From: Clostridia bacterium
Lineage (GTDB): Bacteria > Bacillota > Clostridia > Christensenellales > QALW01
Direction of reading: 5' to 3'
DNA: 64,000 nt
NCBI GenBank assembly: GCA_045652205.1
Contig: JAZRTX010000030.1
Coordinates: 38,433 to 102,432 of the forward strand
The position numbers and the translations under genes were made by a program. Below are positions 23,375 to 54,101 of this stretch, piece after piece (positions within the stretch are counted from its first letter, which is position 1; the number at the start of each line of letters is the position of its first letter). The notes below the pieces were generated by a model. That model was not told where the DNA came from, did no database searches, and was given only the letters and a program-made list of their open reading frames with translations.

Positions 23375-24769
23375 TTATAAAATTTCGCTTACGCTAACCT
23401 GAATGTTAAGGTCTTTTTTGCCTTCTTTGGCTTCTTTTCTTGCCTTAAAGAAGTTCATGGCAACCTGTGGGAAGAGCGCATAAGAAAGTACGTCTTCTTC
23501 CTGTTCAAGATATTCAGTAATTTCAGCCTTTAAGGATTCATATTCAGGCTTTAAGTTATCAGCAGGTCTGCCTGTAATAACAGGTGTATCACCAATGCAC
23601 TTTTTACGAACGTCCTCATTAACGGGAGCAGGAAGCTGACCGTATTCGCCGGCTAAAAGACCTTTTGATTCCTTGGTAACCATCTTGTATCTTTCACCTG
23701 TTAAGATGTTTAATACTGCCTGTGTACCAACAATCTGGCTTGTAGGTGTAACAAGGGGTGGATAACCAAAGTCCTTACGAACGTTAGGAACTTCTGCCAA
23801 GCAATCGTAGAGTTTATCTTCCTTACCTGCTTCTTTTAATTGTGAAAGAAGGTTTGAGAACATTCCGCCGGGAACCTGATATAAAAGAGTGTTGATATTA
23901 ACAGCTAAAACCTTGGGATCAAGAATCTTATCGTTTGTTAAGCGCTGTGCAACCTTTTTAAAGTGGTTGCTTGCTTCAACAAGCTTATCAAGTTCTAAGC
24001 CTGTATCATACTCTGTTCCTTTAAGTGTTGCAACCAAGGATTCAGTTGTAGGCTGGCTTGTTCCGTTTGCAAGGGGTGAAAGTGCAGTATCTACAATATC
24101 TACACCTGCTTCAATAGCCTTTAAGATTGTCATATCACCGGTACCTGACGTGTTGTGGGTATGAAGGTGAATAGGACATTTAACTGCTTCTTTTAATTTT
24201 GAAACAAGTTCATAAGCATCGTATGGAAGAAGAAGGTTTGCCATATCCTTAATACAAATGATATCAGCACCTAACTGTTCCATTTCCTTTGCTAAATTAA
24301 CAAAGTAATTGATATCGTGAACAGGGCTTGTGGTATAGCTCATAGCAAGTTCGGCAATACCGCCGTACTTCTTTGTGCTTTTTGCAGCCTGCTCCATATT
24401 TCTTAAATCGTTTAAAGCATCAAAGATACGAATAATTTCAATACCGTTTTCAATACTTTTCTGAACGAATTTATCAACAACGTCATCAGCATAGTGGCGA
24501 TAGCCTAAAATGTTCTGACCGCGAAGAAGCATCTGTAATTTTGTGTTGGGAAGTGCTTTCTTTAATTTGCGTAATCTATCCCATGGATCTTCGTTTAAAA
24601 AGCGAAGACATGAATCAAAGGTTGCGCCGCCCCAAGCTTCTAAAGAATGGTAGCCGATGCTATCCAAAACTTCACAAGCGGGAAGCATTTCTTCAATACG
24701 CATACGTGTTGCCGCTTGTGATTGGTGGGCATCACGCAATATGGTATCTGTAATTAAAACTTTTGCCAT
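23375..24769 (-). CDS. oadA: biotin-dependent decarboxylase carboxyltransferase (alpha) subunit, oxaloacetate-decarboxylase / 5S-transcarboxylase type
   Basis: 464 aa with an HMGL-like domain (ITDTILRDAHQS, HLHTHNTSG). There is no C-terminal biotinyl domain; BCCP is encoded separately. Confidence 0.85.
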   Translation of the reverse strand: MAKVLITDTILRDAHQSQAATRMRIEEMLPACEVLDSIGYHSLEAWGGATFDSCLRFLNEDPWDRLRKLKKALPNTKLQMLLRGQNILGYRHYADDVVDKFVQKSIENGIEIIRIFDALNDLRNMEQAAKSTKKYGGIAELAMSYTTSPVHDINYFVNLAKEMEQLGADIICIKDMANLLLPYDAYELVSKLKEAVKCPIHLHTHNTSGTGDMTILKAIEAGVDIVDTALSPLANGTSQPTTESLVATLKGTEYDTGLELDKLVEASNHFKKVAQRLTNDKILDPKVLAVNINTLLYQVPGGMFSNLLSQLKEAGKEDKLYDCLAEVPNVRKDFGYPPLVTPTSQIVGTQAVLNILTGERYKMVTKESKGLLAGEYGQLPAPVNEDVRKKCIGDTPVITGRPADNLKPEYESLKAEITEYLEQEEDVLSYALFPQVAMNFFKARKEAKEGKKDLNIQVSVSEIL

Positions 24770-24784
24770 TATTTTTTTCCTCCA

Positions 24785-26038
24785 TTAACCGTAAATAGCA
24801 AGAAGCACGCCTGCTGCAACTGCTGAACCGATAACGCCTGCTACGTTGGGGCCCATTGCGTGCATCAAAAGGAAGTTCTTGGGGTTTGCCTTCTGACCTT
24901 CAACCTGTGAAACACGTGCTGCCATAGGTACTGCGGAAACGCCTGCAGAACCGATAAGGGGATTGATTTTTCCGCCTGTAAGCCAGCACATTACTTTACC
25001 TAAAAGCACACCGCTTGCAGTAGCAACGCCAAATGCAAACAAGCCCATAAGAATGATGAGAACTGTCCAGATATTAAGGAAGCTTTCACCAACTGCCGTT
25101 GCGCCAACAGTTGTACCAAGGAAAATTGTTACGATATTACAAAGTTCATTCTGAACTGTTTTGCTTAAACGTTCCGTTACACCGCACACTCTTAAAAGAT
25201 TACCGAACATCAATGAGCCGATAAGCGGTGCAGTTGAAGGAAGAATAAGAATAATTATCGCTGCTGTTGCTATTGGGAAAATAACAAGTTCGCGCTTAGA
25301 AACAGGACGAAGCTGTTCCATAACGATTTCCCTTTCCTTCTTTGTGGTAAGAAGACGCATAATAGGCGGCTGAATAATAGGAACAAGTGCCATATATGAA
25401 TATGCAGCAACTGCAATAGCCGCAAGTCTATGCGGTGCAAGAATACTTGTTACCAAAATAGCGGTAGGACCATCAGCACCGCCGATAATGCCGATACTTG
25501 CAGCTTCTTCACCTGTAAAGCCAAGAACACCTGCTAAAATAAAGGTAACGAATATACCAACCTGTGCAGCTGCACCTAAAAGAAGACTTTTAGGGTTAGC
25601 AATTAAGGGTGAGAAATCAGTCATAGCACCAACGCCCATAAAGATAAGGCAAGGATAGATGCCTAATTTAACACCTAAGTATAAATAGTCAAAAAGACCT
25701 GCTTTAACGATTGTGCCGTCTTCCATAGCCATACCAACACCGTTAAAGGCTTCCCAATGAACGTGACCTTCAGCAAAGCAGGCTGAGTTAAAAATTTCAC
25801 CGCCGCCGATATTTGCTAAAAGCATACCTGTTGCAATAGGAACAAGTAATAAAGGCTCAAACTTTTTACCGATTGCAAGGTAAAGAAGAACGCAGGCAAT
25901 AATAACCATTACAAGCGTTTGCCAGCCTGTTCCTAAAAAATCTGAGAAAATATCGTAAATTCTGCTTGATTCCCAAAGATTTTTAAGAATATCAAGCACG
26001 TTTACGCTATTTCCTTGTGATAAAATAGCGTAATCCAT
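24785..26038 (-). CDS. oadB: Na+-translocating decarboxylase beta subunit
   Basis: 417 aa, polytopic membrane protein of the OadB/GcdB/MmdB type. Confidence 0.88.
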   Translation of the reverse strand: MDYAILSQGNSVNVLDILKNLWESSRIYDIFSDFLGTGWQTLVMVIIACVLLYLAIGKKFEPLLLVPIATGMLLANIGGGEIFNSACFAEGHVHWEAFNGVGMAMEDGTIVKAGLFDYLYLGVKLGIYPCLIFMGVGAMTDFSPLIANPKSLLLGAAAQVGIFVTFILAGVLGFTGEEAASIGIIGGADGPTAILVTSILAPHRLAAIAVAAYSYMALVPIIQPPIMRLLTTKKEREIVMEQLRPVSKRELVIFPIATAAIIILILPSTAPLIGSLMFGNLLRVCGVTERLSKTVQNELCNIVTIFLGTTVGATAVGESFLNIWTVLIILMGLFAFGVATASGVLLGKVMCWLTGGKINPLIGSAGVSAVPMAARVSQVEGQKANPKNFLLMHAMGPNVAGVIGSAVAAGVLLAIYG

Positions 26039-26052
26039 AGTAGCCCCCCTGA

Positions 26053-26409
26053 TTATTCAAGGCCAACAAGGATATCACCGGTATTAACTGTTGAACCCTT
26101 TGTAACTACTGATTTAACTGTGCCATCCTGAGGTGCAAGGATTTCGTTTTCCATCTTCATAGCTTCAAGAACACAAAGAACGTCACCCTTTTTAACAGCA
26201 GAACCAACCTGAACCTTAACATCTAAAATAGTGCCGGGCATAGGTGATTCAACGTTTACTGCACCGCCTGTAACTGCAGGTGCAGGAGCAGGAGCTTCAA
26301 CTTTTGGTGCTTCAGCCTTGGGAGCTTCTTTTACAGGTGCTGCTGCGCCTGTTTCTTCAATCTCAACAACATATATTTTTCCGTTTACATTTACATTAAA
26401 TTTGCGCAT
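26053..26409 (-). CDS. biotin carboxyl carrier protein of the decarboxylase
   Basis: 118 aa with an Ala/Pro-rich linker and the biotinylation motif EAMKMENEI. Confidence 0.9.
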   Translation of the reverse strand: MRKFNVNVNGKIYVVEIEETGAAAPVKEAPKAEAPKVEAPAPAPAVTGGAVNVESPMPGTILDVKVQVGSAVKKGDVLCVLEAMKMENEILAPQDGTVKSVVTKGSTVNTGDILVGLE

Positions 26410-26429
26410 TTTTATTTTTCTCCTTTTAA

Positions 26430-26774
26430 TTAACCTTTTTTAATTGATTTGATTTTAAAGTTAGCATTACCTGTTGCACAAGTAATCGCAGCTGAAACGG
26501 CTGCTATAAAATCGCCGTCATCCTGTGCTTTATCTGCTTCAGGAACTTCAGCCATAACGCCTGCGGAAATTCGTTTTTCTTCAACAGGGTTTGCTTTTTG
26601 TTGTGTTTTTTCAACAGGAGTTTGTTTATCTTTTAACATTACGTGCAAGCTTTCAATAAGCACGATTAAAATTACAAGCACAGCAAATACAACAAGGACA
26701 CCTATTGCAGTATATTTAAGTGAATCCACAAGCTGAAGCTGTGTTCCTGCTAATAATTGAAACGTTGATACCAT
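26430..26774 (-). CDS. OadG-like small membrane subunit
   Basis: 114 aa with a single N-terminal TM helix. First gene of the decarboxylase operon; RBS GAGAGGTGAGAG. Confidence 0.7.
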   Translation of the reverse strand: MVSTFQLLAGTQLQLVDSLKYTAIGVLVVFAVLVILIVLIESLHVMLKDKQTPVEKTQQKANPVEEKRISAGVMAEVPEADKAQDDGDFIAAVSAAITCATGNANFKIKSIKKG

Positions 26775-29860: not shown

Positions 29861-31945
29861 TTAAATTAAAACTTTTTCATCTTTTTCAACTTGTTTTGAA
29901 TAAAGATTTTCTTTTACCTTTGTAAAGCCTTGAATTTCTGTTTCGGAATACACTAAAAACGTGCCTTTTTCAAGTGCTTGTACTCCACCTGCAATCTTTT
30001 TAAAGGTTTTGGGCATTAAGTATTTTTCTTTTAATCCTAAAACTGCTTTGCCATTTTTTATGGGTGTAAAAATAAGCAAACGGAAATCATCGTAATTGTT
30101 TAAGGTAAGATTGATTGTTTCATCAGTGGAAATTCTTTGGTTAAACCAATCATAACAAACGTATTTACCTTGCTTTAACCCCATATCACTTACGGTAATT
30201 TCACCCGTAACGGCTTTTTCATTTTTATCAAGGTTAAATGCGGTAATTACACCCGTATCCTTAAAGGTGTTATAAAGTTTAAATATCTTTTTGTTCTGAC
30301 GGGCATCTTCAAAAAGACAGTCCTTTGTGATTTTAGGCGGATTTTCAAATCTTAAAATTCTGCCATCAGAGAACACAAGGGGCATAAGGATTTCCTGTTT
30401 ACTGCGATTCAGTTTATCAGAAACATAAATAGGTCCGCCGCTTAAAGCCCTTAAAACAGAGTTCTTTTTGGCTTGGGCATCATCTGACCAGAACATATCC
30501 CAATCCCCTGTAAACAAGGTGCTTTGGAACAAGCTGTTATAACTGCATTGAAGCAAGTGATCAATAAACCATAATCTATCTTCGGGCAAGAAATCACCGC
30601 TGAAACGATTGATATTTGAATAAGTACGGTTCCAGAAGTTTTCGTTAGGCATACCCATACAGTTGATAATGGTTTTATTAAAGTATTTTTTAGTTGCCTT
30701 TTCAACGGCTTCGTGAAGGTTTTTAGAAGTTTCACCAACTCCGCCTTTAAAGTAGGAAAAACGCATTGTTGACCCCTGGTTATCTACCTTTACGAAATCA
30801 CCGCCGCAATCTTTATAAAACTTATACTGATAATCGTAGTATTTTTCAATCTTCTTTTTATCGTAAGAATGCATAAGCCTTGGGCCATCGGGGTAAAAAC
30901 CGGGAATGGTGTATTCTAAAAGCTCGGGAATTCTTTTTGCAAGGGGGCCGTTAGGATTGATACCGTACCAGTATCCGCTGATTGGATGCCAGATGCCAAC
31001 GGTTAAACCGTAATTTTCTTTTATTCTTGTAATGCAATCCTTTAAGCCTTTGGGAAATCTTTCAGGCGCTGCTTCAAAATCATTAAGCTCACGCATATTT
31101 TTTGTTTCGTTATCAATACTTGTAACATCATTCCAGGTATCATCAAGTATTGCCCAACGCACCGGGATATTTTTATCCTTAAATTCCTGACACTTTTCAA
31201 GAAGCTTTTCAGTTGTAACGTGATGCTGAAATGCATCCCATGAACACCAGCCAAGGTATTCAAAAGTTTCGGGGTATTTTTTATTCTTGCGTAAATCCCC
31301 TTTCTTGTTCATCTTTTTTAAGCCAAATTCTACTGCTTTTTCAGGTAAATCGTATTCATTTTCACCGATTGCACCTATGAGCAGATGTTCATTTATACTA
31401 TCGCACAAGGTATTTGAACATGCAATCAAAGAAACCCTGTTGTTTTCACATGGAAAGAGTTCGGTTTTGAACATTTGATCGCAAAGGGTAATCAAGCACA
31501 CGTTTTGCTCGTTCATTTTATATAATAATGCCTGTGTGCGTTCTTTAAGGTTACTTAACTTATCGTTTACAAAAGGTTGTTGCCAGAAAATATAGCTCAT
31601 AAACCCTGAAACGTAAGAGCCTGTATGTTTAAGGTTGAAATCAAGGCCTAACGAGCATAAGGAATTAAGGTGATGACCGTGCCCCATTAAGCCTTCATTT
31701 TTATAACCGCCCTGAAGTTTTAATATGAAGCTGTTATTTTCTTCAACAACAGAAAGGGTGAAGCTTGCATTGCCCCCATCACTTTCAAAATATATGTTTT
31801 TTTCATCCCAATTTTTATATTCAAGATAGATTTTATCTTTGGAATCCTGTTCCCAAGGCAGAAGTTTTGTGTTCACCCAAGGGATAATATTTTTTAAAAG
31901 TACTTTATTTTTAAAGTAAAGAGAATTTTCTTTAAAGTAATACAT
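29861..31945 (-). CDS. GH36-clan glycosidase of the raffinose-synthase / Sip1 alpha-galactosidase family
   Basis: 694 aa with YLGWCSWDAF, FVKVDNQ (nucleophile KxD) and GDWDMFWSDD...RALSGGPIYVSDK, all hallmark raffinose-synthase family motifs. No signal peptide. The start lies 5 nt after the activase stop. Confidence 0.8.
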   Translation of the reverse strand: MYYFKENSLYFKNKVLLKNIIPWVNTKLLPWEQDSKDKIYLEYKNWDEKNIYFESDGGNASFTLSVVEENNSFILKLQGGYKNEGLMGHGHHLNSLCSLGLDFNLKHTGSYVSGFMSYIFWQQPFVNDKLSNLKERTQALLYKMNEQNVCLITLCDQMFKTELFPCENNRVSLIACSNTLCDSINEHLLIGAIGENEYDLPEKAVEFGLKKMNKKGDLRKNKKYPETFEYLGWCSWDAFQHHVTTEKLLEKCQEFKDKNIPVRWAILDDTWNDVTSIDNETKNMRELNDFEAAPERFPKGLKDCITRIKENYGLTVGIWHPISGYWYGINPNGPLAKRIPELLEYTIPGFYPDGPRLMHSYDKKKIEKYYDYQYKFYKDCGGDFVKVDNQGSTMRFSYFKGGVGETSKNLHEAVEKATKKYFNKTIINCMGMPNENFWNRTYSNINRFSGDFLPEDRLWFIDHLLQCSYNSLFQSTLFTGDWDMFWSDDAQAKKNSVLRALSGGPIYVSDKLNRSKQEILMPLVFSDGRILRFENPPKITKDCLFEDARQNKKIFKLYNTFKDTGVITAFNLDKNEKAVTGEITVSDMGLKQGKYVCYDWFNQRISTDETINLTLNNYDDFRLLIFTPIKNGKAVLGLKEKYLMPKTFKKIAGGVQALEKGTFLVYSETEIQGFTKVKENLYSKQVEKDEKVLI

Positions 31946-31950
31946 TCTTC

Positions 31951-32784
31951 TTAAAACGCTTTGGCGTTTATTCCTTCCTGTAAAAATATTTCTGTTTTTT
32001 TGTTTAACGGTGCGTTTTCATCAAAAGGCGGATTATATTCCCTGCCTAAATTTTTATATTTTGCACCCGTCATTTTGTTATAAGGGATAAGTTCAACCGT
32101 TACGTTATTTTTATAAGGTGCTAAAAAATCTGCGATGCCTTGTAAATTCTTATCAGTATCGGTTAAATTTGGTATTAAAGGAATTCTTACGGTTATAAAC
32201 CTTTTACTTAATATCGCTTTTGCATTTTTTAAAATCAGTTTGTTGCTTACGCCTGTGTGTTTTATATGCTCATTTTCATCAATCAGTTTAATATCCATAA
32301 AGATATCGTCAATTTTATCAGTTACACGCAAAAAAACTTCCTGTTCAACGTATCCGCAAGTTTCAACCGCAGTTTTAATACCGTTAAGATTTTTTATAAC
32401 TTCAAGAATAAAATCCCCCTGACAAAGAGGCTCGCCCCCTGAAAACGTTACACCGCCTTTTTGTAAAAACACTTTGTTTTTTAAAAGTTTTTCACTAAGG
32501 CTCTCAGGTGTAAACTCCTGCCCTACCACCTTGATATTATCATTGTGGCAGATTTTTAAACAAAGACCTGCATCCCTACATTCTTGGTGGCTACAAGGTT
32601 TTTGGCAAAGTCCGCAAGAAGTGCATTTACTTTGATTTTTGCTTATTTCTTTAATAAAACTTTGCCCTTCGGGATTATGGCACCAAACACATTTTAACGG
32701 ACAACCTTTAAAAAACACCGTAGTGCGAAGCCCGCTGCCATCGTGTAATCCAAATTCCTTAATATCAAAAATAAGACTATTCAT
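31951..32784 (-). CDS. glycyl-radical enzyme activating protein (radical SAM)
   Basis: 277 aa with CPLKCVWCHNPE (CX3CX2C) and a ferredoxin-like Cys insert (CTSCGLCQKPC...CLKIC). Overlaps the GRE stop (ATGAATAG). Confidence 0.92.
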   Translation of the reverse strand: MNSLIFDIKEFGLHDGSGLRTTVFFKGCPLKCVWCHNPEGQSFIKEISKNQSKCTSCGLCQKPCSHQECRDAGLCLKICHNDNIKVVGQEFTPESLSEKLLKNKVFLQKGGVTFSGGEPLCQGDFILEVIKNLNGIKTAVETCGYVEQEVFLRVTDKIDDIFMDIKLIDENEHIKHTGVSNKLILKNAKAILSKRFITVRIPLIPNLTDTDKNLQGIADFLAPYKNNVTVELIPYNKMTGAKYKNLGREYNPPFDENAPLNKKTEIFLQEGINAKAF

Positions 32785-34834
32785 TAAATTCCTGCCTTAA
32801 AATAAGGTGATCCTGATATTCCTTATCAAGTTCAACGAAATAGGCACTCCAGCCCCAGATGCGAACTATAAGATTTTTGTAATTTTCAGGATTCTTTTGG
32901 GCATCAAGCAGTTTTTGGCGGTTAATAGAGTTAAGCTGAAGCTGATGGCCGCCTAAATCAATATACTGTTTAACTAACCCTGCAACTTGTTCAATACCTT
33001 CGTCAGTTTCAAAGATGCTTGAATGGAATTCCATGGTTAAAGGTCCGCCGTTAATGGCCCTTTGAAGTGGTTGCTTGGTAAAGGACTGTATTACTGAGAA
33101 AGGTCCTTTTGATTTAACGTAAATGCTTGGTGAATAGTTTGCACCAAAGGGTTCACCTTTTCTTCTGCCGTCAGGGGAAGCATCCAATTCATCAGCGTGC
33201 CATAAGTAATACATTGCAGAGCCGGGACCTGTTCTGAACTTTCCGCCCCTTTCGTTTACCTTGCCATCAACTGCATCCTGATACCAGTTCATTAAAGTTG
33301 ATGCAATATTATCTACGCTATCAACGTTATCGCCCATTTTGGCGTTTTCAAATCTGAAAAGATGCAATAATTCTTCAAAGCCTTTAAAATCGTTTTTAAT
33401 AGCGTTGATTAAATCCTTTTTAGAAACGTCTTTTTTATCAAAAATATGGTTGCGGATAACTTCTAACGAATCAGAGGCAGTTGCAACACCTGTTCCGTGA
33501 ATACCAAAGTAATTGTATTTTCCGCCCTTTGAAATATCCCTTGCATTTTTTACACAATGGGGCATTAAAACTGAATAAAACGGTGCAGGAACAAAGTAAA
33601 TATTTTTATATTTTTCAAGCATAGTTTCAGTTTCTTCTTTGATTGCTTTACGGATGTATTCCATAAAATCATCAAAAGTTTCGGCTTTTTCAAGGAACTG
33701 ATAAATCGCCTGTTGAACGATTTTAGGATATGAAAGGGCATCAATATTAACTATATCTGCTTCACCGGGTAAAATAAATTCCCAGCATGCAGCAACGGAA
33801 TAATTACGGGCATCCTTTAAATCATAGCCTAAATCAACTAAACCTTTAATTACTACGTCATCATTAGAATACTGTGGAAAGCCAAGCCCCGCCTTTGTTA
33901 AGTGAGTGCCTTCAATATAGCGTTCAAAAGGCGTATCCTTTGAAACGCGTAAGTTTATCTTAGGATCAATAAGTTTAAGCTGGCAACTTGTTCTTAAACA
34001 CATCTCAGATAAAAGATTATATGCATCCCTGCCATCTTCATCACATCCGCCAAGCATCATTGATTGGCCGTTATCACCAAGCTGAATACCAACGTATTTA
34101 TCGTTATCCCAGTTAAACGACATAAAAAATTCTTCTAAAATATCTTCTGCCTGTTCCTGTGTTAAAACACCTTTTTCAAGGTCGTTTTTAAGATAGGGAT
34201 ACATATATTGATCAAATCTGCCAACAGTGTTATGATATTCCCCTTCTGCCCAAAGGGTATAGTGAAGTATGCGGAAAAACTGCAATGCTTCAATAAAACT
34301 TTCTGCTTTTTTATGGGGAACCTTTGTTAAGATTTTAACAATATCTTCGCGATTTTGTTTTTTGGCTTCCTGAATATATTTATCGGTTAAATAAAAAATA
34401 CTGTCAATCTGATTTAATGCGGCATTTAAAAATGCAACGCCTTCTGTATCGTTTTCATTTTCAGCTTGCTTTAAGCGCACCAGAATTTCTTCCTTGCGGG
34501 CATCTAAACCGCAGGCAATGGTATCGCCGTAGCAAGCACAACCGTTGGAAAAATAGCCAAGTTCGTGAATATAATGATTGTTTTTAATTTTTTCCCATTC
34601 ATCTTCTTCAAAAACACTTGGAACGTCAGTAACTGTACGGATAAAAACTATCCTTTGTCCTTGTAAAATTACAGCGTTTTCCTGGGCAAAAACGTCCTTT
34701 AATCGCATTGCCATTCGTGTAACAGGTAAAATTGCAGAATTTGTAAAATCCGATGCAATCTCTTTATTGAATTTTTTTCTGAACGCATGATGTTGTTTAT
34801 TTAACACCTGTTTATATAATGTTTCGTTATACAT
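32777..34834 (-). CDS. glycyl radical enzyme, short form (685 aa), eliminase-type Cys loop; substrate unknown
   Basis: C-terminal glycyl-radical motif LIVRIWGWSAYFVELDKEYQDHLILR (Gly661). Cys loop NYSVAACWEF (Cys350, Glu352). Also ASPDGRRKGEPFGANYSPS and GFPQYSNDD motifs shared with PFL-family enzymes. Confidence 0.88.
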   Translation of the reverse strand: MYNETLYKQVLNKQHHAFRKKFNKEIASDFTNSAILPVTRMAMRLKDVFAQENAVILQGQRIVFIRTVTDVPSVFEEDEWEKIKNNHYIHELGYFSNGCACYGDTIACGLDARKEEILVRLKQAENENDTEGVAFLNAALNQIDSIFYLTDKYIQEAKKQNREDIVKILTKVPHKKAESFIEALQFFRILHYTLWAEGEYHNTVGRFDQYMYPYLKNDLEKGVLTQEQAEDILEEFFMSFNWDNDKYVGIQLGDNGQSMMLGGCDEDGRDAYNLLSEMCLRTSCQLKLIDPKINLRVSKDTPFERYIEGTHLTKAGLGFPQYSNDDVVIKGLVDLGYDLKDARNYSVAACWEFILPGEADIVNIDALSYPKIVQQAIYQFLEKAETFDDFMEYIRKAIKEETETMLEKYKNIYFVPAPFYSVLMPHCVKNARDISKGGKYNYFGIHGTGVATASDSLEVIRNHIFDKKDVSKKDLINAIKNDFKGFEELLHLFRFENAKMGDNVDSVDNIASTLMNWYQDAVDGKVNERGGKFRTGPGSAMYYLWHADELDASPDGRRKGEPFGANYSPSIYVKSKGPFSVIQSFTKQPLQRAINGGPLTMEFHSSIFETDEGIEQVAGLVKQYIDLGGHQLQLNSINRQKLLDAQKNPENYKNLIVRIWGWSAYFVELDKEYQDHLILRQEFNE

Positions 34835-34868
34835 ATTTTCACCTAAAAATCCAAATTCTTCTATTTAA

Positions 34869-34897
34869 ATAATATCATACAGAAAGTCAAAAGTCAA
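34869..34897 (-). promoter_or_regulatory. sigma-A promoter of the GRE-activase-GH36 operon
   Basis: The minus strand reads TTGACT, a 17-nt spacer, then TATTAT. It lies directly after the upstream terminator. RBS AGGTG is 5 nt before the ATG. Confidence 0.6.
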
Positions 34898-34902
34898 TAT
34901 AA

Positions 34903-34925
34903 AAAAGCCTGCAAAAAGCAGACTT
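34903..34925 (-). terminator. intrinsic terminator after the GH42-like gene
   Basis: The minus strand reads AAAAAGTCTGC-ttttt-GCAGGCTTTTTT. Confidence 0.75.
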
Positions 34926-34926
34926 T

Positions 34927-36876
34927 TTAGTATTCCATAACGATAATATCGTGGCATAAAAGTTTATCTACAGTGAACATAATTTCGTTATTATTTTGAG
35001 TAAAATCATATTCCTTGTCAGTTACAGGCGAATAAACTTTTTTAATGGTTTCCCGAACCTTTATTTTGATCGGTATATTGTAAATCGGGATAATATCTTC
35101 AATAATTTCTGCCTTGCCTCTTTTAACAGGTGAAGCGTAAAGCATACCAAGACAATATCTGTTTTGTTCCTTTTGTTTTAAGAAAGATATTCTGCCTTGT
35201 GAGTAAAGTTCAATTTCAACCTGTGGCTGATACACTTTATCAAGAGCTTCCATAAAAATACGCTTATGCATTACTGCACCGAACTCAAAATAATTTGCCG
35301 TCAAAGGATTAGCAATATATATTACATTACCCTTCTTAATAATACCTGCATATTCTTGGGCATCTTTATTGTACGGGGTATTTTTATGACCGCAATAGTG
35401 ATCGTAGGTTCTTGAAAAATACGGGTGGCTGACTGTTGCAAGAACTGTGCCATCAATATTTTTAACTTTGTTTGAAGTTATATAGCAAAGTATCGGTGCA
35501 TCGGGAATATCTCTTTTTGCATTTATTAAATGCATATAATCGCAATCAAATTCACATTTGCCTATATACTCTCCACCGCAATCAAGTAAAAATTCATTAT
35601 CTTTTATTAAAGAATCACCTTCAAAAAGCACTTTACCGCCATTAAAAACAAACTCTTTGATTTTTGCTATGGTGCTTTCATTAAGCTTACATCCATTAGG
35701 GAAAATTACCGTCTGATACTTATTAAAATCATCATTTAGAATAATATCAAACTCGTACTGATTTTCGCAAAGAATCTTTACTACGCCGTGGTTTGCATCA
35801 GGATTTTTTGAAAAATATACACCTAATTTTGTTTCGGTTTCGCCACTATAAACGTAAGGTGTAATTTTTTCAAGATAATTAAAAGCGTAACCAATATTAT
35901 CATAGGTTGCCATTTCAATTTCACCGTCAGGATGCAAATGATCACCGATATAACAGCCTGCGCCGTAAAGAGACATAGCGCAAAGCTCGTACTTTAAAGC
36001 TTCCTTGGTTTTAAAACCGCCGAATTCACCCCAATCGTAGTGGAATTTTGCCGTCATTCCAAGATAATCCTTGCCCAGTTGCTTAAATACCTTAGCCCTT
36101 AACGGCATTTTATCGTATCCTCCCCAAGCCGTAGGAAGATCTTCCATTTCAATATGGGTTTCGTATTGTGTACGATGAAGATTGTTTATATCTGCGCCCC
36201 CTGAATTGAAAAACACGGTAGCATCAGGGTAATATGAGTGCAAAATCTCAGCACACTTTTTAGTGAATAAAACGCGTTTTTGTTCAAAATAAGCTTTGCA
36301 ATCCTGTAAGTTTTCGGGGGCCATATTATTTTCAAGCATACCCTTTTTACATTCATCACAAACACAATACTGGCTTACAAAACAAATATCATATATGATG
36401 CCGTCAACCTGATAATTACGGCAGATTTCGTGGGTAATATCATAAATATACTGAGCATAAGAATTATCACTTAAACAAAGATTTATCCACGAAGCGTGTG
36501 GTTTTTTATCTGTGCCTTTGGCGTTAATATCATAATTCATGGTAAATGTGCCGTCAAAATGTTTTGAAATCCATTCCGGATGTTCAACAGCATCAAGCTG
36601 TGACCAGCCAACAGGAATATAAATAGGTGCATTAACACCGATTTCGTGAGCGGCATCAAGCATTTCACCTAACAAATCAAATTTAAGTTCAGGGTGCATG
36701 GTGCCTATTTTTGTAGGATAATATGAGTATCCGTGATGGCATTTTGCAAATATATTTATGCTTTGTGCATTTGCCCTTTTAAGCGCCTGTTGAAATTTTT
36801 CTTTTGAAAATTTTGCACCTATCCCCTTAATTTCAGGCGAAGTATGAAAATCAAGGTGTATACATCTTTTTTTCAT
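34927..36876 (-). CDS. putative glycoside hydrolase, GHL6 / GH42-like TIM barrel with beta-galactosidase-trimerisation-like middle domain
   Basis: 649 aa. The N-terminus HLDFHTSP...FAKCHHGYSYYPT resembles the 'hypothetical glycosyl hydrolase 6' family from memory. The Cys cluster CFVSQYCVCDEC recalls the GH42 Zn site. No signal peptide. Confidence 0.65.
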   Translation of the reverse strand: MKKRCIHLDFHTSPEIKGIGAKFSKEKFQQALKRANAQSINIFAKCHHGYSYYPTKIGTMHPELKFDLLGEMLDAAHEIGVNAPIYIPVGWSQLDAVEHPEWISKHFDGTFTMNYDINAKGTDKKPHASWINLCLSDNSYAQYIYDITHEICRNYQVDGIIYDICFVSQYCVCDECKKGMLENNMAPENLQDCKAYFEQKRVLFTKKCAEILHSYYPDATVFFNSGGADINNLHRTQYETHIEMEDLPTAWGGYDKMPLRAKVFKQLGKDYLGMTAKFHYDWGEFGGFKTKEALKYELCAMSLYGAGCYIGDHLHPDGEIEMATYDNIGYAFNYLEKITPYVYSGETETKLGVYFSKNPDANHGVVKILCENQYEFDIILNDDFNKYQTVIFPNGCKLNESTIAKIKEFVFNGGKVLFEGDSLIKDNEFLLDCGGEYIGKCEFDCDYMHLINAKRDIPDAPILCYITSNKVKNIDGTVLATVSHPYFSRTYDHYCGHKNTPYNKDAQEYAGIIKKGNVIYIANPLTANYFEFGAVMHKRIFMEALDKVYQPQVEIELYSQGRISFLKQKEQNRYCLGMLYASPVKRGKAEIIEDIIPIYNIPIKIKVRETIKKVYSPVTDKEYDFTQNNNEIMFTVDKLLCHDIIVMEY

Positions 36877-36948
36877 AAGTGAAACGCTCCTTTTGAATTT
36901 ATTATATTATAACCTTTTTTCAGTTTCTTTGTAAACACCAAAAAATTA

Positions 36949-36981: not shown

Positions 36982-37986
36982 TTATTTAATAATCAGCCTT
37001 GTAATAACGCCCCAGGGTAAGCAATAAGGTGTTGAACTTACCATATACTGATCAATAGGCTGATCGTGCTTAACGCCTTGCTCATCAACGTAATAAGCAG
37101 GAAGCTTTGTGTGGTTTCCATCGTGGAAATGTCCGCAGAAAATACCTTTAATAACATCAGAATTGCTTTGAATAAGTTCAAGCATCTTTTTATCGGTTTC
37201 GTTTGTATATTGAGGATTACCGATAAGCCTGCGGTCATAAACGTTTGAAGTTTCAAAACGGTTTACAAAGAAGTTAGGTGCTTCCTTATCTTCTTCCTTA
37301 CCTGTTGCGATTGCGGTATGTTGAAAAAGTAAAATAATATTGTTGTCCTTGCGTGCTTTTTCAATTTCTACCTTCAATTTTTCAACCTGATCTTCAAAAT
37401 AGTGTTCTGTTGTATCGTTATCAAGGCCAACAAGCACTACCTTATCACCTAAAACTCTTGTATCATAGCGTACATCATTAGGCCAATAGGGTTTAAGAAT
37501 ATTTATGCGTTCTTCATAAGGAAGCTTATCGGGAAGATTGGTCATATTGTTTTTTGAAACGTCGTGAATAGCGATGGTACACATAATATTAGGCAACCTA
37601 TCAAAAAAAAGTTCTTTAGCGTAATCAAGGGCGCCGTAGGTAAGGTAATCAATAACGTCCCCTGCAATAACGGTGCAATCACAGAATTCTGCCGCCTTAG
37701 TTGCGTTTTCTAACGCTTTAAAACAGCTTGGATGCCTAAATATCATTCCGCGGCATTTACTGCTAAGTTGAACCTCTTCATCGTTAGCATCCTTTTCGCT
37801 TACAACGTGAATATGTGTATCTGCCATAATTGCAACGTCAATAGGCTCGCCACCTTTTTTAGTTTCAATGGTAAGCTCACAAATAACCTGCTTTGTATCA
37901 GCAAGTTGATAGCAGTTTACGTTTGGATTTGGGCGCATATTATCCACGGGCAACTTTTCTTGTGCAAAAAATTCTTGTTTTGTCAT
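36982..37986 (-). CDS. calcineurin-like metallophosphoesterase
   Basis: 334 aa with the motifs DTHIH, AGDVID, (A)IHD, QHT and CGHFHD in canonical order. Confidence 0.8.
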   Translation of the reverse strand: MTKQEFFAQEKLPVDNMRPNPNVNCYQLADTKQVICELTIETKKGGEPIDVAIMADTHIHVVSEKDANDEEVQLSSKCRGMIFRHPSCFKALENATKAAEFCDCTVIAGDVIDYLTYGALDYAKELFFDRLPNIMCTIAIHDVSKNNMTNLPDKLPYEERINILKPYWPNDVRYDTRVLGDKVVLVGLDNDTTEHYFEDQVEKLKVEIEKARKDNNIILLFQHTAIATGKEEDKEAPNFFVNRFETSNVYDRRLIGNPQYTNETDKKMLELIQSNSDVIKGIFCGHFHDGNHTKLPAYYVDEQGVKHDQPIDQYMVSSTPYCLPWGVITRLIIK

Positions 37987-38523: not shown

Positions 38524-40389
38524 ATGGCAGAGAAGAAATACGTTATCGATAATGCCGAACTGATGGCAGAATGGAACTGGGAAAAGAACGCAGAATTTAA
38601 CCCAAATCAATTGACTCACGGAAGTCATAAAAAGGTATGGTGGAAATGTATCAAAGGCCATGAGTGGCAAGCGACAATAGTTGATAGAAATAATAGACAT
38701 GGATGTCCATATTGTTCGAATAAAAGAGTGTTAAAAGGCTATAATGATTTACTGACAATCAATCCAACTTTAGCAAATGAGTGGAATTACGAAAAAAATA
38801 ATGAATTAACTCCTAGCGATGTAATGCCCAATAGCGGGAAAAAAGTTTGGTGGAAATGTAAAAATGGTCACGAGTGGCAAGCGACAATAGGGAGCAGAAA
38901 CGGTGGACGTGGTTGTCCGTATTGTTCAGGATATTATGTCATTAAAGGACAAAACGATCTGCAAACGGTAAATCCCTCTTTAGCAAAAGAATGGAATTAT
39001 GAAAAAAACAATGGATTAACCCCTACGGATGTAATGCCCAATAGCGGAAAAAAAGTTTGGTGGAAATGTAAAAATGGTCACGAGTGGCAGGCATCAATTA
39101 ATAGTAGAAACAATGGCATTGGATGTCCATATTGTTCGGGACGATTCGCTATTAAAGGTCAAAATGATTTACAAACGGTAAATCCCTCTTTAGCAAAAGA
39201 ATGGAATTATGAGAGAAACAATGGCTTAACACCTATGGATGTAACACCCAATAGTGATAAAAAAGTATGGTGGAAGTGTAAAAAAGGGCACGAATGGCAA
39301 GCGATAATAGGCAGTAGAAATAGAGGAAATGGATGCCCTGTTTGTAATTCCGAGCGAAACACTTCTTTTCCCGAATATGCTATAGTTTTCTATCTTAGAA
39401 AATATGGTTTAGAAACAATTCATTCGTACAAAGAAAACGGATACGAATTAGACATTTACATTCCATCTAAAAAAGTAGCCATCGAATATGACGGGCATCT
39501 TTGGCACAAAAACAAAACGAAACAAGATTTGATAAAAAACCGTAAATGCGTAAATGATGGAATTAAACTATATCGAATAAGGGAAGGACTACCGCTCCTA
39601 AATGACAGTTCTATAGATTATGTTGTTCAAAGAAACCAAGACGATCTCTCAAAAATACTCAAACTTCTTTTAAGTAAAATCACTGAAACTATCGTAGATG
39701 TCGACTTAAAAAGAGATGCTATTGCTATAGAAAACCTGAGAGAATATACAGAAAAAGAAAATTCTATTTCATTTGCTAATCCTAAAATAACGAAAGAGTG
39801 GAATCACGAAAAGAACTGTAATTTAAAACCGGAACATTTTGCAGCAAATAGCCATAAAAAAGTTTGGTGGAAATGCCCCAAAGGTCATGAATGGCAAGCG
39901 ACAATACAAGACAGAAACAATGGAAACGGATGTCCATATTGCTCGAGCAAAATAGTTTTACAAGGCTATAATGATTTACAAACGGTCAATCCAAGCTTAG
40001 CAAAAGAATGGAATTATGAAAAAAACAATGGATTAACCACCATGGATGTAATGCCAAATAGTTCTAAAAAAGTCTGGTGGAAATGTAGTGTAGGACACGA
40101 ATGGCAAGCAAAGATAGCTGATAGAAATCAAGGACGCGGATGTCCATATTGTGCAGGTAAAAAAGTGTTAAAAGGATTTAATGATTTGCAGACAGTAAGT
40201 CCAACTTTGGCAGCAGAATGGCATTATGAAAAGAATAATGGATTAACACCTATGGAGGTATCACCTAATAGTCATAAGAAAGTCTGGTGGAAGTGTGACA
40301 AAGGACACGAATGGCAAGCATTGATATACAATAGACAAAGAGGGAACGGTTGCCCTATTTGTAGAAAACTAAAAAATAAAGAGGTTTAG
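38524..40389 (+). CDS. zinc-ribbon repeat protein (7 x ~70-aa DUF4379-like treble-clef repeats) with a central Vsr/DUF559-like PD-(D/E)XK nuclease-fold core
   Basis: 621 aa. The repeat is L..EW.YEKN..L.P.DV.P.S.KKVWWKC..GHEWQA.I..RN.G.GCPYC. There are four copies at aa 13-276 and three at aa 422-621. The core at aa ~283-353 reads FPEYAIVFYL...GYELDIYIPSKKVAIEYDGHLWH...LYRIRE. An extended -10 (TGgTATAAT) lies at 38477-38485, with RBS GTGAGGTG. Confidence 0.8.
   Translation: MAEKKYVIDNAELMAEWNWEKNAEFNPNQLTHGSHKKVWWKCIKGHEWQATIVDRNNRHGCPYCSNKRVLKGYNDLLTINPTLANEWNYEKNNELTPSDVMPNSGKKVWWKCKNGHEWQATIGSRNGGRGCPYCSGYYVIKGQNDLQTVNPSLAKEWNYEKNNGLTPTDVMPNSGKKVWWKCKNGHEWQASINSRNNGIGCPYCSGRFAIKGQNDLQTVNPSLAKEWNYERNNGLTPMDVTPNSDKKVWWKCKKGHEWQAIIGSRNRGNGCPVCNSERNTSFPEYAIVFYLRKYGLETIHSYKENGYELDIYIPSKKVAIEYDGHLWHKNKTKQDLIKNRKCVNDGIKLYRIREGLPLLNDSSIDYVVQRNQDDLSKILKLLLSKITETIVDVDLKRDAIAIENLREYTEKENSISFANPKITKEWNHEKNCNLKPEHFAANSHKKVWWKCPKGHEWQATIQDRNNGNGCPYCSSKIVLQGYNDLQTVNPSLAKEWNYEKNNGLTTMDVMPNSSKKVWWKCSVGHEWQAKIADRNQGRGCPYCAGKKVLKGFNDLQTVSPTLAAEWHYEKNNGLTPMEVSPNSHKKVWWKCDKGHEWQALIYNRQRGNGCPICRKLKNKEV
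38560..39351 (+). repeat. in-frame 210-bp tandem coding repeats (4 units); three more units at 39787..40386
   Basis: For example, gtaatgcccaatagcgg(g/a)aaaaaagtttggtggaaatgtaaaaatggtcacgagtggca occurs at 38821 and again at 39031, an offset of exactly 210 bp. Confidence 0.85.
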
Positions 40390-40433
40390 TATGTTTGAGT
40401 GGATTAAAAAGCATATTTTATGGAGTGTTAACT

Positions 40434-40952
40434 ATGGATTTTGAAAAGATAATTGACGAAAGATATTCCGTTAGAAGTTTTAAAGATGAGCATTTACCCC
40501 AAGACGTTCTTGATAAAATTTTAGAAGCGGGACACAAGGCGCCTACGGGTTGTAATTTTCAGCCACAGCGTATTCTTGTTTTAAACAGTGATGAAGCTAT
40601 CTTAAAATTAAAGGATTGTACCCGTTGTCATTTTAATGCGTCCACCGCAATGTTAATCTGCCACAACAAAGACGAAAGCTGGAAAAGAGCTTACGACGGG
40701 GCATTATCTTCACCTGTTGATGCAACAATCGTAACAACCTTTATGATGCTTGCAGCACAAAACCAAGGTGTTGGAACTTGTTGGGTAATGCATTTTAATC
40801 CTTTTAAAATAAAAGAAGCCTTTAATATCCCTGAAAACTATGAACCTTGTGCGTTACTTGTTATGGGTTATCCAGACGAAAATGCAAAGCCCATTGATAT
40901 GCATTTTAAAAATCGCGATATGAAAGAAACAGTTTTTTATGATAAATTTTAA
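40434..40952 (+). CDS. nitroreductase family protein
   Basis: MDFEKIIDERYSVRSF...APTGCNFQPQRILV matches the nitroreductase N-terminus. Start moved to ATG 40434, with GGAG 9 nt upstream. Confidence 0.85.
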   Translation: MDFEKIIDERYSVRSFKDEHLPQDVLDKILEAGHKAPTGCNFQPQRILVLNSDEAILKLKDCTRCHFNASTAMLICHNKDESWKRAYDGALSSPVDATIVTTFMMLAAQNQGVGTCWVMHFNPFKIKEAFNIPENYEPCALLVMGYPDENAKPIDMHFKNRDMKETVFYDKF

Positions 40953-40956
40953 AATA

Positions 40957-40982
40957 AAAAGCACCGTTTTTACGGTGCTTTT
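40957..40982. terminator. bidirectional intrinsic terminator
   Basis: AAAAGCACCG-ttttta-CGGTGCTTTT, lying between convergent genes. Confidence 0.85.
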
Positions 40983-40986
40983 AATT

Positions 40987-41871
40987 TTATACCATATTAT
41001 ATTTTTTAAGCATTTCCTTTTCAAAATCAAGAAGATATTTTGCTTCGGCATCAATTTTTGCTTCGGTGGGATCTTCTAAAAGATCGCGGTAAACGTGGAT
41101 ATCGCGTCCAACTTCGCCACCCTGCATAATAAAGGGTTCGGAAACAATACGGCCTTTATAGTTAATATCGGAAAGAGCCTTGAAAACTTCATCCCAATCA
41201 ATGTGGCCTCTACCCGGAGCGCGACGGTTGTTATCACCTGTGTGGAAGCTTGTAAGCTGGCTGCCAACAAGGCGGATAGCATCACCGATATTATCTTCTT
41301 CAATATTCATGTGGTAAGTATCAAGAAGAACGCCGATATTTTTGCTATCAATTTCTGAAACGTATTGAAGTGCTTCCTTTGCGGTGTTAATAAGGCAGGT
41401 TTCAAAACGGTTAACTGCTTCAACGCAATATGTAACATTGCAATCTTCGGCAACCTTGATAATTTCTTTCATACTTTTGATGCTCTGATTCCAGTAAGGC
41501 ATTTTTGAATCGCCCATATCGTCAGGCGTGCCCCATCCTGCATAGCTTACACCTGAAAGAAGTGTACCGCCACCAACGTGCATTTTTTTAACGATATTCT
41601 GAAGATATTCAACACCGCCCTTGCGGATTGTTTCGTTTAAGGAAGAAACGTCATAACGGCGGTCAAGACCTAAACTATAAGTAAGTTCAATGCCTTCATC
41701 ATCTGCTAATTTCTTTAAATCGCGGATATGGTCGTCAGTCATTTCTAAAAGCGGTTGAGCTTGGAATTCCAAAACGTCAAAGCCGATAGCCTTTGCTTTT
41801 TTAATGTACTTTTTATGGTCTGCTGCCCAGTTCTTCTCCCAGAAGTTCATGAAAATACCTAATTTATTCAT
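40987..41871 (-). CDS. xylose-isomerase-like TIM-barrel enzyme, ketose 3-epimerase (D-psicose/D-tagatose 3-epimerase) family
   Basis: 294 aa. The N-terminus GIFMNFWEKNWAADHKKYIKKAKAIGFDVLE parallels known DPEases. Metal-ligand pattern: E(CVEAVNRFE), D(LLDTYH), H, E(SEPF). Confidence 0.75.
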   Translation of the reverse strand: MNKLGIFMNFWEKNWAADHKKYIKKAKAIGFDVLEFQAQPLLEMTDDHIRDLKKLADDEGIELTYSLGLDRRYDVSSLNETIRKGGVEYLQNIVKKMHVGGGTLLSGVSYAGWGTPDDMGDSKMPYWNQSIKSMKEIIKVAEDCNVTYCVEAVNRFETCLINTAKEALQYVSEIDSKNIGVLLDTYHMNIEEDNIGDAIRLVGSQLTSFHTGDNNRRAPGRGHIDWDEVFKALSDINYKGRIVSEPFIMQGGEVGRDIHVYRDLLEDPTEAKIDAEAKYLLDFEKEMLKKYNMV

Positions 41872-41889
41872 AATTAAAATCTCCTTTAA

Positions 41890-43281: not shown

Positions 43282-43300
43282 TGTTTTATCCTCCTTCAAA

Positions 43301-43320
43301 TTACTTTAACGATAAAGTAA
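43301..43320. promoter_or_regulatory. candidate LacI-family operator
   Basis: TTACTTTAAC|GATAAAGTAA is a 20-bp palindrome centred on CG with one mismatched pair. It lies 20 nt upstream of the isomerase start, in the divergent region shared with the LacI gene. Confidence 0.55.
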
Positions 43321-43437
43321 TTATACCACATTTTACACTTAATGTCAATATTCAAAATTTATAATTTTAAAATTTTTCTTGACAAATTGCCGTTTATTTT
43401 ATATAAGTTAAGTATATATTATTTAAGGAGTTTAAGA

Positions 43438-44445: not shown

Positions 44446-44475
44446 AAAAAACGGCTTATAAAAGCCGTTTTTTTG
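44444..44475. terminator. bidirectional intrinsic terminator
   Basis: AAAAAAAACGGCTT-ataa-AAGCCGTTTTTTT, lying between convergent lacI-like and tkt genes. Confidence 0.85.
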
Positions 44476-44477
44476 TT

Positions 44478-46460: not shown

Positions 46461-46621
46461 CAGTTTACCTCCGTAAACGGCTAAGCCGTAATTTTTCAAT
46501 TATATTATAGTATAATTAGCACTTTTTTGCAAGTAAATACACGCACATATCACAAAAGTTTTTCTTTCCTTATTGTTAATTTTTTGGTATAATGATTAAA
46601 AATCCAAATGGAGTGAATTTT

Positions 46622-54049: not shown

Positions 54050-54101
54050 TATTTTTTGTTCCTTTCTTTTAAAGCAAAAGCATAGACATATAATCTGTAT
54101 T

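Follow-up and report, generated by a model that had tools for sequence, protein, structure and literature searches.

A compact glycyl radical enzyme co-encoded with its activase and a raffinose-synthase-type GH36 hydrolase represents an uncharacterised clade with a probable link to carbohydrate utilisation

This study deals with a three-gene operon of a Clostridia bacterium (GenBank assembly GCA_045652205.1, contig JAZRTX010000030.1), located in a window of 64,000 nt of this contig whose positions are used throughout. Its genes, all of them on the minus strand and confined to the stretch 29861-34926, encode a short glycyl radical enzyme (GRE) that is expected to be oxygen-sensitive, the radical-SAM activase of this enzyme, and a cytoplasmic glycoside hydrolase (GH) of family 36 (Table 1). 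A preliminary description, made from the DNA letters, had presented them as three tightly coupled genes, and both the gene boundaries and the junctions, which were read directly from the sequence, bear this out: the stop codon of the GRE gene and the start codon of the activase gene lie in a shared 8-nt overlap (ATGAATAG), and 5 nt separate the TAA stop codon of the activase gene from the ATG of the GH36 gene. GRE, activase, and GH36 genes form one operon.

Table 1. Features of the operon and of the genes upstream of it (positions in the 64,000-nt window).
Feature	Position	Strand	Description	Basis
GRE gene	32777-34834	-	compact glycyl radical enzyme, 685 aa	Pfam PFL-like and Gly_radical, AlphaFold2 model, Foldseek
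GRE key codons	Asn97 34544-34546; Cys350 33785-33787; Glu352 33779-33781; Gly661 32852-32854	-		
GRE further key residues			His201/Asn202, Asp254/Asn255, Arg534	
Activase gene	31951-32784	-	GRE-activating radical-SAM enzyme, 277 aa; CX3CX2C at 32680-32703	TIGR02494, Radical_SAM, Fer4_12
GH36 gene	29861-31945	-	cytoplasmic, raffinose-synthase / alkaline alpha-galactosidase type, 694 aa	PF05691, 7EXF alignment
Promoter-like site of the GRE operon	34869-34897	-	TTGACT, 17 nt, TG-extended TATTAT	consensus match
Terminator-like hairpin	34902-34928	-	11-bp stem and U-run, ends upstream GH151 gene	RNA fold
GH151 gene	34927-36876	-	alpha-L-fucosidase homologue, 649 aa, own transcription unit	6TVK, Pfam GHL6
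Promoter-like site of the GH151 gene	36906-36935	-	11/12 positions match	
Hairpin terminator after the 334-aa gene	36948-36977			
Gene of the 334-aa protein	36982-37986	-	unknown family	motifs by eye only

On the 5' side of the GRE gene, the stop codon of a GH151 gene is followed by a hairpin, a promoter-like site, and a good AGGTGA ribosome-binding site, in this order. The hairpin (-13.7 kcal/mol, z = -5.48), which folded better than all 200 shuffled sequences, is terminator-like and isolates the operon from the GH151 gene. The dedicated promoter that had been proposed for the operon corresponds to a site matching the consensus at 10 of 12 positions. Since such sites are only modestly above shuffle expectation in this AT-rich DNA (47 found in the region, 33 expected), the match alone is weak evidence, but its placement between a terminator and a ribosome-binding site makes a function as promoter plausible. 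No terminator is visible between the GH36 stop codon and the next gene, which encodes a DUF2953 protein.

The GRE matched two Pfam models above their cut-offs, PF02901 (PFL-like; 5.3e-87) and PF01228 (Gly_radical; 6.4e-21). The motif AACWEF, which begins at residue 348, contains the predicted catalytic residues Cys350 and Glu352, and the motif RIWGWSAYF, which begins at residue 658, contains the predicted radical-bearing Gly661. These motifs aligned with GCVEP and RVAGYSAQF, respectively, of glycerol dehydratase (GD; 1R8W), and the three residues also aligned with the catalytic residues of propanediol dehydratase (PD), PflD, and HypD, so that the earlier assignment of Cys350, Glu352, and Gly661 involves no misalignment to solved GREs. 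The radical motif fits the pattern R-[IV]-x-G-[YFW] of the GRE superfamily. Classically, the residue preceding the radical glycine is Cys, Ser, or Ala (PROSITE PS00850), and the tryptophan found at this position falls outside that pattern. An AlphaFold2 model computed with 37 family sequences reached a predicted local distance difference test score (pLDDT) of 88 and a predicted template modelling (TM) score of 0.90. Its fold is GRE-like: Foldseek gave query-normalised TM scores of 0.84-0.87 to GD, PD, CutC, HypD, PflD, and YbiW (0.85-0.87 to the C-X-E eliminases and isomerases) with identities of 20-25%, and over the solved GREs as a whole the identities were 18-25%. The preliminary description had also put the enzyme at 100-150 residues shorter than characterised eliminases. 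Indeed, about 100 residues are missing in comparison with the 787-aa GD, approximately 67 of them N-terminal, with family position 95 standing opposite GD residue 162 in the profile alignment, and the rest from internal loops. Judged by these features, the GRE looks catalytically competent, and it is accompanied by a cognate activase.

A Glu located two positions past the catalytic Cys defines the C-X-E class of GREs (PMC13450708). By the features tested, the enzyme can be assigned to this class of 1,2-eliminases and isomerases and to no characterised family, since neither the equivalog cut-offs of the known subfamilies are reached nor the substrate residues of GD matched. Among NCBIfam models, the highest scores were those of TIGR01774, which describes the PFL2/glycerol-dehydratase subfamily (326 bits, cut-off 678), and of the HypD equivalog (323 bits, cut-off 1100), followed by the PflD equivalog NF007437 (285 bits, cut-off 1109), the HpsG/HpfG models (237-271 bits, cut-off 1000), and the CutC model (229 bits, cut-off 1050). 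Identities of PFL, CutC, HypD, HpsG/HpfG, IslA, HPAD, IAD, BSS, GrcA, and YjjI/YjjW were all rejected, the corresponding NCBIfam models being far under their cut-offs or unmatched. Among the 1.84 billion cluster representatives that were searched, full-length relatives from the same clade (640-710 aa) scored 480-770 bits at 41-53% identity, and canonical GREs of ~790 aa scored 250-290 bits at 31-35% identity. Together with identities of at most ~25% to solved GREs, these scores agree with the expectation that the enzyme would fall outside the characterised clades and indicate that its clade is separate from every one of them. A 2026 review of the GRE superfamily, covering six C-O eliminases, CutC, three C-S lyases, and three isomerases, points out that whole clades are still without function annotation; it lists nothing that matches the compact clade (PMC13450708). 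In searches of the literature on GREs, no paper on the compact clade was found, and a paper on aminoacyl radical enzymes contained nothing of relevance.

In a scan of relatives with one genome per species, the clade was detected in at least 580 species genomes. The best 80 of these at least 580 relatives belong to Clostridia, Acutalibacteraceae, Oscillospiraceae, Ruminococcaceae, Erysipelotrichaceae, Prolixibacteraceae/Maribellus, Bacteroidales, and Brevinematales, and the nearest, with 82% GRE identity, is the Clostridiales metagenome-assembled genome SIG404; Maribellus, Fumia, and Ructibacterium are among the genera named in the hits. The hosts are anaerobes from humans, ruminants, and sediments, and their GREs, where annotated at the source, are labelled 'pyruvate formate-lyase' or 'formate C-acetyltransferase'. 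Clade members are ~660-690 aa long, and all full-length ones keep AACWE[F] and R[IV]WGWS. Because they are kept across full-length members, the unusual motifs are hallmarks of the clade and no quirk of a single gene. Thus, the W-G-W motif and the short length emphasised in the preliminary description are real, but they characterise a clade of at least 580 species genomes and not this gene alone. A broader group of short GREs (~660-750 aa; P0152-P0270 of a representative library) carries ACWEP and RVWGFS, and the combination of a tryptophan before the radical glycine with a C-W-E loop thus marks a larger uncharacterised superclade.

Conservation of individual residues was assessed in 105 family members, with positions mapped by profile alignment to solved GREs. 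Cys350, Glu352, and Gly661 were each conserved in 104 of the 105 sequences. The same number of sequences have Asn97, which stands at the position of the general-acid His of GD (H164) and PD (H166); Asp254 and Asn255 are kept in 103 and 102 sequences, respectively, and Arg534 is invariant in the clade. The predicted active site is polar and invariant (Asn97, His201, Asp254, Asn255, Gln257, Trp351, Asn363, and Arg534), and it differs from that of every solved GRE. From the set of GD residues H164, H281, S282, Y339, D447, and Y640, the sole one retained is H281, as His201: H164 is replaced by Asn97, S282 by Asn202, and Y640 by Gly538, and two active-site loops are absent, namely a loop of 5 residues that contains GD Y339 (HypD F340) and one of 8 residues, GD 444-451, that includes D447. 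HypD (6VXC), a trans-4-hydroxy-L-proline dehydratase, provides the second-best NCBIfam model for the GRE, and the HypD activase is the best equivalog model for the activase. Two of its substrate contacts, Asp278 and Ser334, fall on the invariant GRE positions Asn202 and Asn255; in contrast, Asn97 stands in for HypD His160, the GRE lacks the Phe340 loop, and no proline or amino-acid genes occur in the context of the clade.

A predicted active-site signature of 19 positions was nearly identical in members linked to GH36 genes (the window and loci L013-L019, L025, L028, L030, and L032) and in those linked to GH51 or transporter genes, and the small differences, at positions 96, 197, 537, 542, and 664, follow lineage and not the type of partner. 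This suggests that the core clade has one substrate or one binding mode.

Both partners of the GRE were assigned with scores above the cut-offs of their families. The activase matched TIGR02494 with 244.7 bits (cut-off 174.35) as well as the Pfam families Radical_SAM and Fer4_12; its CX3CX2C motif is formed by C28, C32, and C35, and seven further cysteines within C54-C79 belong to a Cys-rich ferredoxin-like insert. According to blastp on crude calls of open reading frames (ORFs), an activase gene adjoins the GRE gene in 69 of 92 loci, the window included, and tblastn recovered it in additional loci where ORF calling had failed. The GH36 protein matched Raffinose_syn (PF05691; 2e-59, 201.6 bits, cut-off 20), and its best match in the Protein Data Bank (PDB) was the alkaline alpha-galactosidase RS6 of Arabidopsis (7EXF; 1.4e-49). 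The predicted nucleophile Asp388, in the motif KVD, aligns with the KVD of 7EXF, which reads KVA in a second deposited sequence (7EXG), and the predicted acid/base Asp451, in RFSGDF, aligns with RASDDF of RS6. Thus, the catalytic core is alignable with that of the plant enzyme and keeps its KVD nucleophile and R-x-S-x-D-F acid/base motifs, whereas the bacterial protein is cytoplasmic, and sequence alignment does not extend into its N- and C-terminal regions. It is predicted to be a retaining hydrolase of the alpha-galactosidase type that keeps both catalytic aspartates.

The genomic context of the clade was analysed in fetched loci whose ORFs were called crudely and labelled by BLAST and Pfam, and context counts refer to 82 non-redundant loci. 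The tight order GRE-activase-GH36, whose conservation in relatives had been proposed as a check, was found by tblastn in all seven species genomes with a GRE at least 68% identical to that of the window (L013-L019), three of which have a second GH36 gene in tandem. Upstream genes vary among these seven loci; a glycerate kinase gene lies directly upstream of the GRE gene in L014-L016 (L014 5117-6253, L016 6810-7991), L016 has a 57%-identical GH151 copy at a distance of two genes upstream, and in L019 GH36 is followed by a gene for a GH78 rhamnosidase. Below ~61% GRE identity, the position directly downstream is not occupied by the raffinose-synthase-type GH36 gene any more. Nonetheless, 7 more distant lineages again have GH36 genes near the GRE gene, for example in L025, with the order Raffinose_syn GH36-DUF4886-AraC-Melibiase GH36-GRE-activase-GH63-like-GH94-like, where the Melibiase-type label was given by cluster membership.

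Other sugar-related partners also recur in the clade. Bacteroidota loci follow the pattern [GH36 / GH51 / mutarotase]-MFS sugar transporter-activase-GRE-HAD, as in GH36-MFS-activase-GRE-HAD of a Prolixibacteraceae locus (L078) or MFS-activase-GRE-HAD-GH36-like (L063); in L067, genes for an FGGY kinase, a class II aldolase, and a FucI/AraA-like isomerase stand beside MFS-activase-GRE. Elsewhere, the GRE and activase genes are accompanied by an AraC regulator and GH51 (L010, AraC/GRE-activase-GH51), by a CUT2-type monosaccharide ATP-binding cassette (ABC) transporter directly downstream (L039, Bacillota), by a mutarotase (L049, Bacillota), or by LacI (L034), and GH43 is also among the partners. 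Within four genes of the GRE gene, a divergent AraC regulator was present in 28 of the 82 loci, GH36 in 15, GH51 alpha-L-arabinofuranosidase in 8, an MFS sugar porter in 6, and a mutarotase (aldose 1-epimerase) and a HAD/MDP-1-type phosphatase in 4 each; an FGGY kinase was found in 2. In 27 loci, the neighbourhood includes one or more genes for a sugar hydrolase, transporter, mutarotase, or kinase, a number that rises to 46 when AraC is counted. Moreover, these genes are concentrated around the GRE: in the same loci, 21 GH36 genes were located within four genes of it and 6 more distally, with corresponding numbers of 8 and 0 for GH51, and of 33 and 5 for AraC. Clade GREs are probably placed, and consistently so, in loci for plant-glycan or monosaccharide utilisation.

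GDSL esterase genes were found in 6 loci, at times between the GRE and activase genes, and DUF4867 genes in 4. Several loci of Acutalibacteraceae and Ruminococcaceae have an additional gene at this place: in L042 and L048 it encodes a GDSL/SGNH esterase (243-266 aa), in L070 it encodes 243 aa and is GDSL/SGNH by cluster membership, and in L026 and L028 it encodes 216 aa and appears to be DUF4867, by cluster membership only. Such insertions may be a clue to the pathway.

Taken together, we propose that the operon carries out a radical step in anaerobic carbohydrate use in which the GRE would act on a sugar-derived substrate, a reading to which we give a probability of roughly 0.55. The preliminary description had suggested radical chemistry on an aglycone or sugar released from an alpha-galactoside. 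The sugar context is supported by the present data, but a specific alpha-galactoside aglycone has become less probable, given that GH36 is just one of several partners and that the active site is the same with all of them. Because the active site is unchanged whatever the partner hydrolase, the substrate is most likely a common molecule at the monosaccharide level, namely a sugar of galacto or arabino configuration in free form or a closely related derivative, and not a specific aglycone. D-galactopyranose and L-arabinopyranose are homomorphous, and mutarotases, AraC-type regulators, and CUT2 or MFS porters handle free monosaccharides.

By analogy with C-X-E GREs (PMC13450708), the activase, a radical-SAM enzyme with a [4Fe-4S] cluster, would abstract the pro-S hydrogen of Gly661 to give a stable glycyl radical, which in each turnover would generate a thiyl radical at Cys350. 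This thiyl radical would take a hydrogen atom from a carbinol carbon of the sugar-derived substrate while Glu352 of the C-W-E loop deprotonates the hydroxyl of that carbinol; the resulting ketyl radical would expel the adjacent C-O substituent, be it water, a ring oxygen, or an ether oxygen, and the product radical would regain a hydrogen from Cys350. Overall, the substrate would be dehydrated or isomerised internally to a deoxy-keto compound, and the co-translated GH36 would free the substrate or its precursor from imported alpha-galactosides.

Several observations weigh against this proposal. In GD, PD, and HypD, the leaving hydroxyl is protonated by a His, for which the compact GRE has Asn97, and a different leaving group is therefore possible; the leaving-group chemistry is uncertain, and that of diol dehydratases would not be a given. 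The leaving group could be a ring or ether oxygen, as in YbiW/PflD, or another acid residue could serve, with the invariant His201, Asp254, and His446 as candidates. In the structural model, the radical loop (residues 655-663, window 32846-32872) has a pLDDT below 50, which may result from a shallow alignment or from a W-G-W loop unlike those of canonical GREs. Regarding the context, 36 of the 82 loci, many of them short contigs, have no recognisable sugar gene or AraC within four genes. The partners are heterogeneous and the hosts rich in glycoside hydrolases, so that some of the adjacency could be due to chance. In the close subclade, the GH36 order may in part be inherited synteny, as L013-L019 also share the downstream housekeeping genes DUF2953, YtfJ, and DacB. 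Finally, the glycerate kinase of L014-L016, together with a mannosylglycerate-hydrolase-like GH encoded after the activase in L025 (10766-12352), hints at a C3 acid or polyol and at glycosyl-glycerate/glycerate metabolism.

In a narrower form of the proposed carbohydrate function, the GRE would act directly on a free, unphosphorylated monosaccharide such as alpha-D-galactopyranose or L-arabinopyranose, made available through GH36 or GH51 hydrolases, sugar porters, and mutarotase, and would dehydrate or ring-open it to a deoxy-keto sugar or deoxy-lactone. This possibility is tentative, and we consider it rather unlikely. If true, the anaerobic catabolism of hexoses and pentoses would have an entry reaction that is cofactor-free, hitherto unknown, and widespread among gut Clostridia and Bacteroidota.

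In sequence and fold, the GRE matches best with GD of Clostridium butyricum (1R8W/1R9D) and PD of Roseburia inulinivorans (5I2G) (5e-83, profile 2e-105, TM 0.85-0.87), which lends some weight to an alternative in which it would be a dehydratase of a diol, polyol, or hydroxy acid acting on a C3 aglycone, that is, a compact analogue of these B12-independent enzymes. Candidate substrates would be glycerol derived from galactosylglycerol or from the head groups of galactolipids, 1,2-propanediol derived from fucose or rhamnose, and D-glycerate derived from glycosyl-glycerates. The enzymes have in common a ten-stranded barrel, a C-x-E Cys loop, a glycyl radical domain, and a cognate activase that carries auxiliary clusters, and PD likewise serves the catabolism of a sugar, fucose. 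His201 aligns with GD His281, the invariant Arg534 could bind a carboxylate, and Trp351, bulkier than the Val of GCVE, could narrow the pocket. The neighbourhood fits in part as well, with the glycerate kinase gene immediately upstream in L014-L016, the mannosylglycerate-hydrolase-like GH of L025, the GH151 fucosidase gene adjoining the operon in the window and near it in L016, and the GH78 rhamnosidase gene of L019. Nevertheless, identity to GD and PD is 24-25%, the GRE is shorter by the ~100 residues and two loops described above, its radical motif is W-G-W instead of A-G-Y, 4 of the 5 substrate-contact positions of GD are changed or deleted, and the score lies far under the cut-off of the GD/PFL2 subfamily. 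No genes for a microcompartment shell, an aldehyde dehydrogenase, or a 1,3-propanediol dehydrogenase were seen near any of the 82 loci, and monosaccharide transporters and mutarotases are partners unsuited to a C3 substrate. On balance, a C3 dehydratase appears improbable.

To our knowledge, the anhydro-hexitol-phosphate isomerases are the only GREs that act on sugars. These enzymes, YbiW/PflD (8ID7, 8ID0, 8YJO), isomerise 1,5-anhydroglucitol-6-phosphate or 1,5-anhydromannitol-6-phosphate, and the GRE could be a similar isomerase of a sugar phosphate or anhydro-sugar, which cleaves a ring C-O bond to yield a deoxy-ketose (phosphate) for a kinase and an aldolase, in a non-phosphotransferase-system 'anhydroglycolysis' of galacto- or arabino-configured substrates. 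Both short active-site loops are PflD-like in length and E. coli PflD aligns there without gaps, while GD, PD, and HypD have insertions; in addition, the C-x-E loop is shared, the TM scores to PflD and YbiW (0.86-0.87) equal those to any GRE, and the YbiW/PflD genes are also found amid carbohydrate utilisation. The FGGY kinase, class II aldolase, and FucI/AraA-like isomerase genes of L067, the HAD (MDP-1-like) phosphatase gene that follows the GRE gene in four Bacteroidota loci, and the invariant Arg534 would suit such a reaction, whose class is documented (PMC13450708). Against it stand an identity of 20-24%, the score of 285 bits with the PflD equivalog (cut-off 1109), lengths of 765-810 aa as opposed to 685, and a Cys loop (GCVE instead of ACWE) and radical motif (A-G-Y) that differ from those of the GRE. 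The context is also different, since YbiW/PflD genes are accompanied by phosphotransferase system and aldolase genes, and the compact clade by GH36 or GH51 with MFS or ABC transporters. No phosphotransferase system genes were seen in the loci examined, kinase and aldolase genes occur in few of them, and the operon of the window has neither. An isomerase of this type is about as doubtful as the C3 dehydratase.

Least probable is a meaningless adjacency to hydrolase genes, with GRE and activase as a mobile two-gene module for a non-carbohydrate fermentation substrate in glycan-rich genomes: although the activase is the only universal partner, other partners vary greatly or, in the 36 loci mentioned, lack a sugar gene or AraC, and conservation in the close subclade coincides with that of flanking housekeeping genes, the sugar genes are concentrated within four genes of the GRE and rare further out, the genes are spaced as tightly as in an operon (5 nt in the window; elsewhere, runs on one strand whose gaps do not exceed 150 nt), the associations are independent in Bacillota and Bacteroidota and involve two GH36 subfamilies, and the regulators, AraC (cupin) or LacI, are of the sugar type.

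Highly consequential anaerobic reactions of gut microbes, among them the formation of trimethylamine, p-cresol, skatole, H2S, and propionate, depend on GREs. In the present case, the radical machinery is known, and what is new is an uncharacterised clade for which the predicted active site and the carbohydrate context suggest a new substrate. Identification of that substrate would extend carbohydrate fermentation by a new radical reaction, correct a widespread mis-annotation as 'pyruvate formate-lyase', and provide a compact GRE scaffold for studies of mechanism, in which Trp residues flank the radical Gly and the general-acid His is replaced by Asn. Widely distributed as it is, the operon is well suited to enzyme discovery.

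Both genes that precede the operon are separate transcription units, consistent with the preliminary description, which had given each of them a terminator of its own; their signals comprise the hairpins and the GH151 promoter-like site listed in Table 1. Their protein assignments, on the other hand, have to be revised. The supposed GHL6/GH42-like hydrolase is a full-length homologue, by sequence similarity, of a solved GH151 alpha-L-fucosidase, 6TVK (4e-113), which it matches over residues 3-648, in addition to Pfam GHL6. The supposed metallophosphoesterase, the 334-aa protein, had no Pfam match even at E <= 1, PF00149 included, and none in NCBIfam or among PDB sequences. With motifs recognised by eye (DTHIH at 56, GD at 109, and GHFH at 285), a calcineurin-like metallophosphoesterase is possible but unsupported. 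A 90%-identical copy of this protein is encoded directly upstream of the GRE gene in L001 and L013, and the closest relatives, L001 and L002, do not have the GH151 gene between the two. In these two loci, a prophage end (L001 1-8532, L002 1-8152) precedes the 334-aa gene, with tail-like proteins (DUF859, BppU_N, DUF6273), a reverse transcriptase (RVT_1), a CBM_5_12 protein, an amidase, and a holin, possibly a diversity-generating retroelement.

Further features were observed in the rest of the window. A gene at 38524-40389 on the plus strand encodes a 621-aa protein with seven DUF4379 treble-clef zinc-finger repeats (2e-154) and a weak REase_MTES_1575 match, and the GC/AT skew flips sign around it (+0.15 and +0.19 at 38-40 kb). 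It is followed, at 40395-46499, by a sugar-type cluster of genes for a nitroreductase, a xylose-isomerase-like TIM-barrel protein, a FucI/AraA-like isomerase of 469 aa, LacI, and a transketolase. This FucI/AraA-like isomerase (41890-43299) had no match among PDB sequences, and it was rejected as an orthologue of the L067 isomerase, with which it shares 24% identity and the superfamily only. A 2204-aa protein encoded at 47516-54130 on the minus strand combines an apiosidase-like catalytic domain with BspA-type leucine-rich repeats and DUF5060 and is probably a giant surface enzyme for glycan degradation. On the other side of the operon, downstream of YtfJ, DacB, and RluB, which are genes of sporulation and the cell wall, the region 23375-26774 on the minus strand contains a sodium-pump cluster of the oxaloacetate decarboxylase (OAD) type, whose OAD gamma, biotinyl carrier, OAD beta, and carboxyltransferase genes were assigned by synteny with L001.

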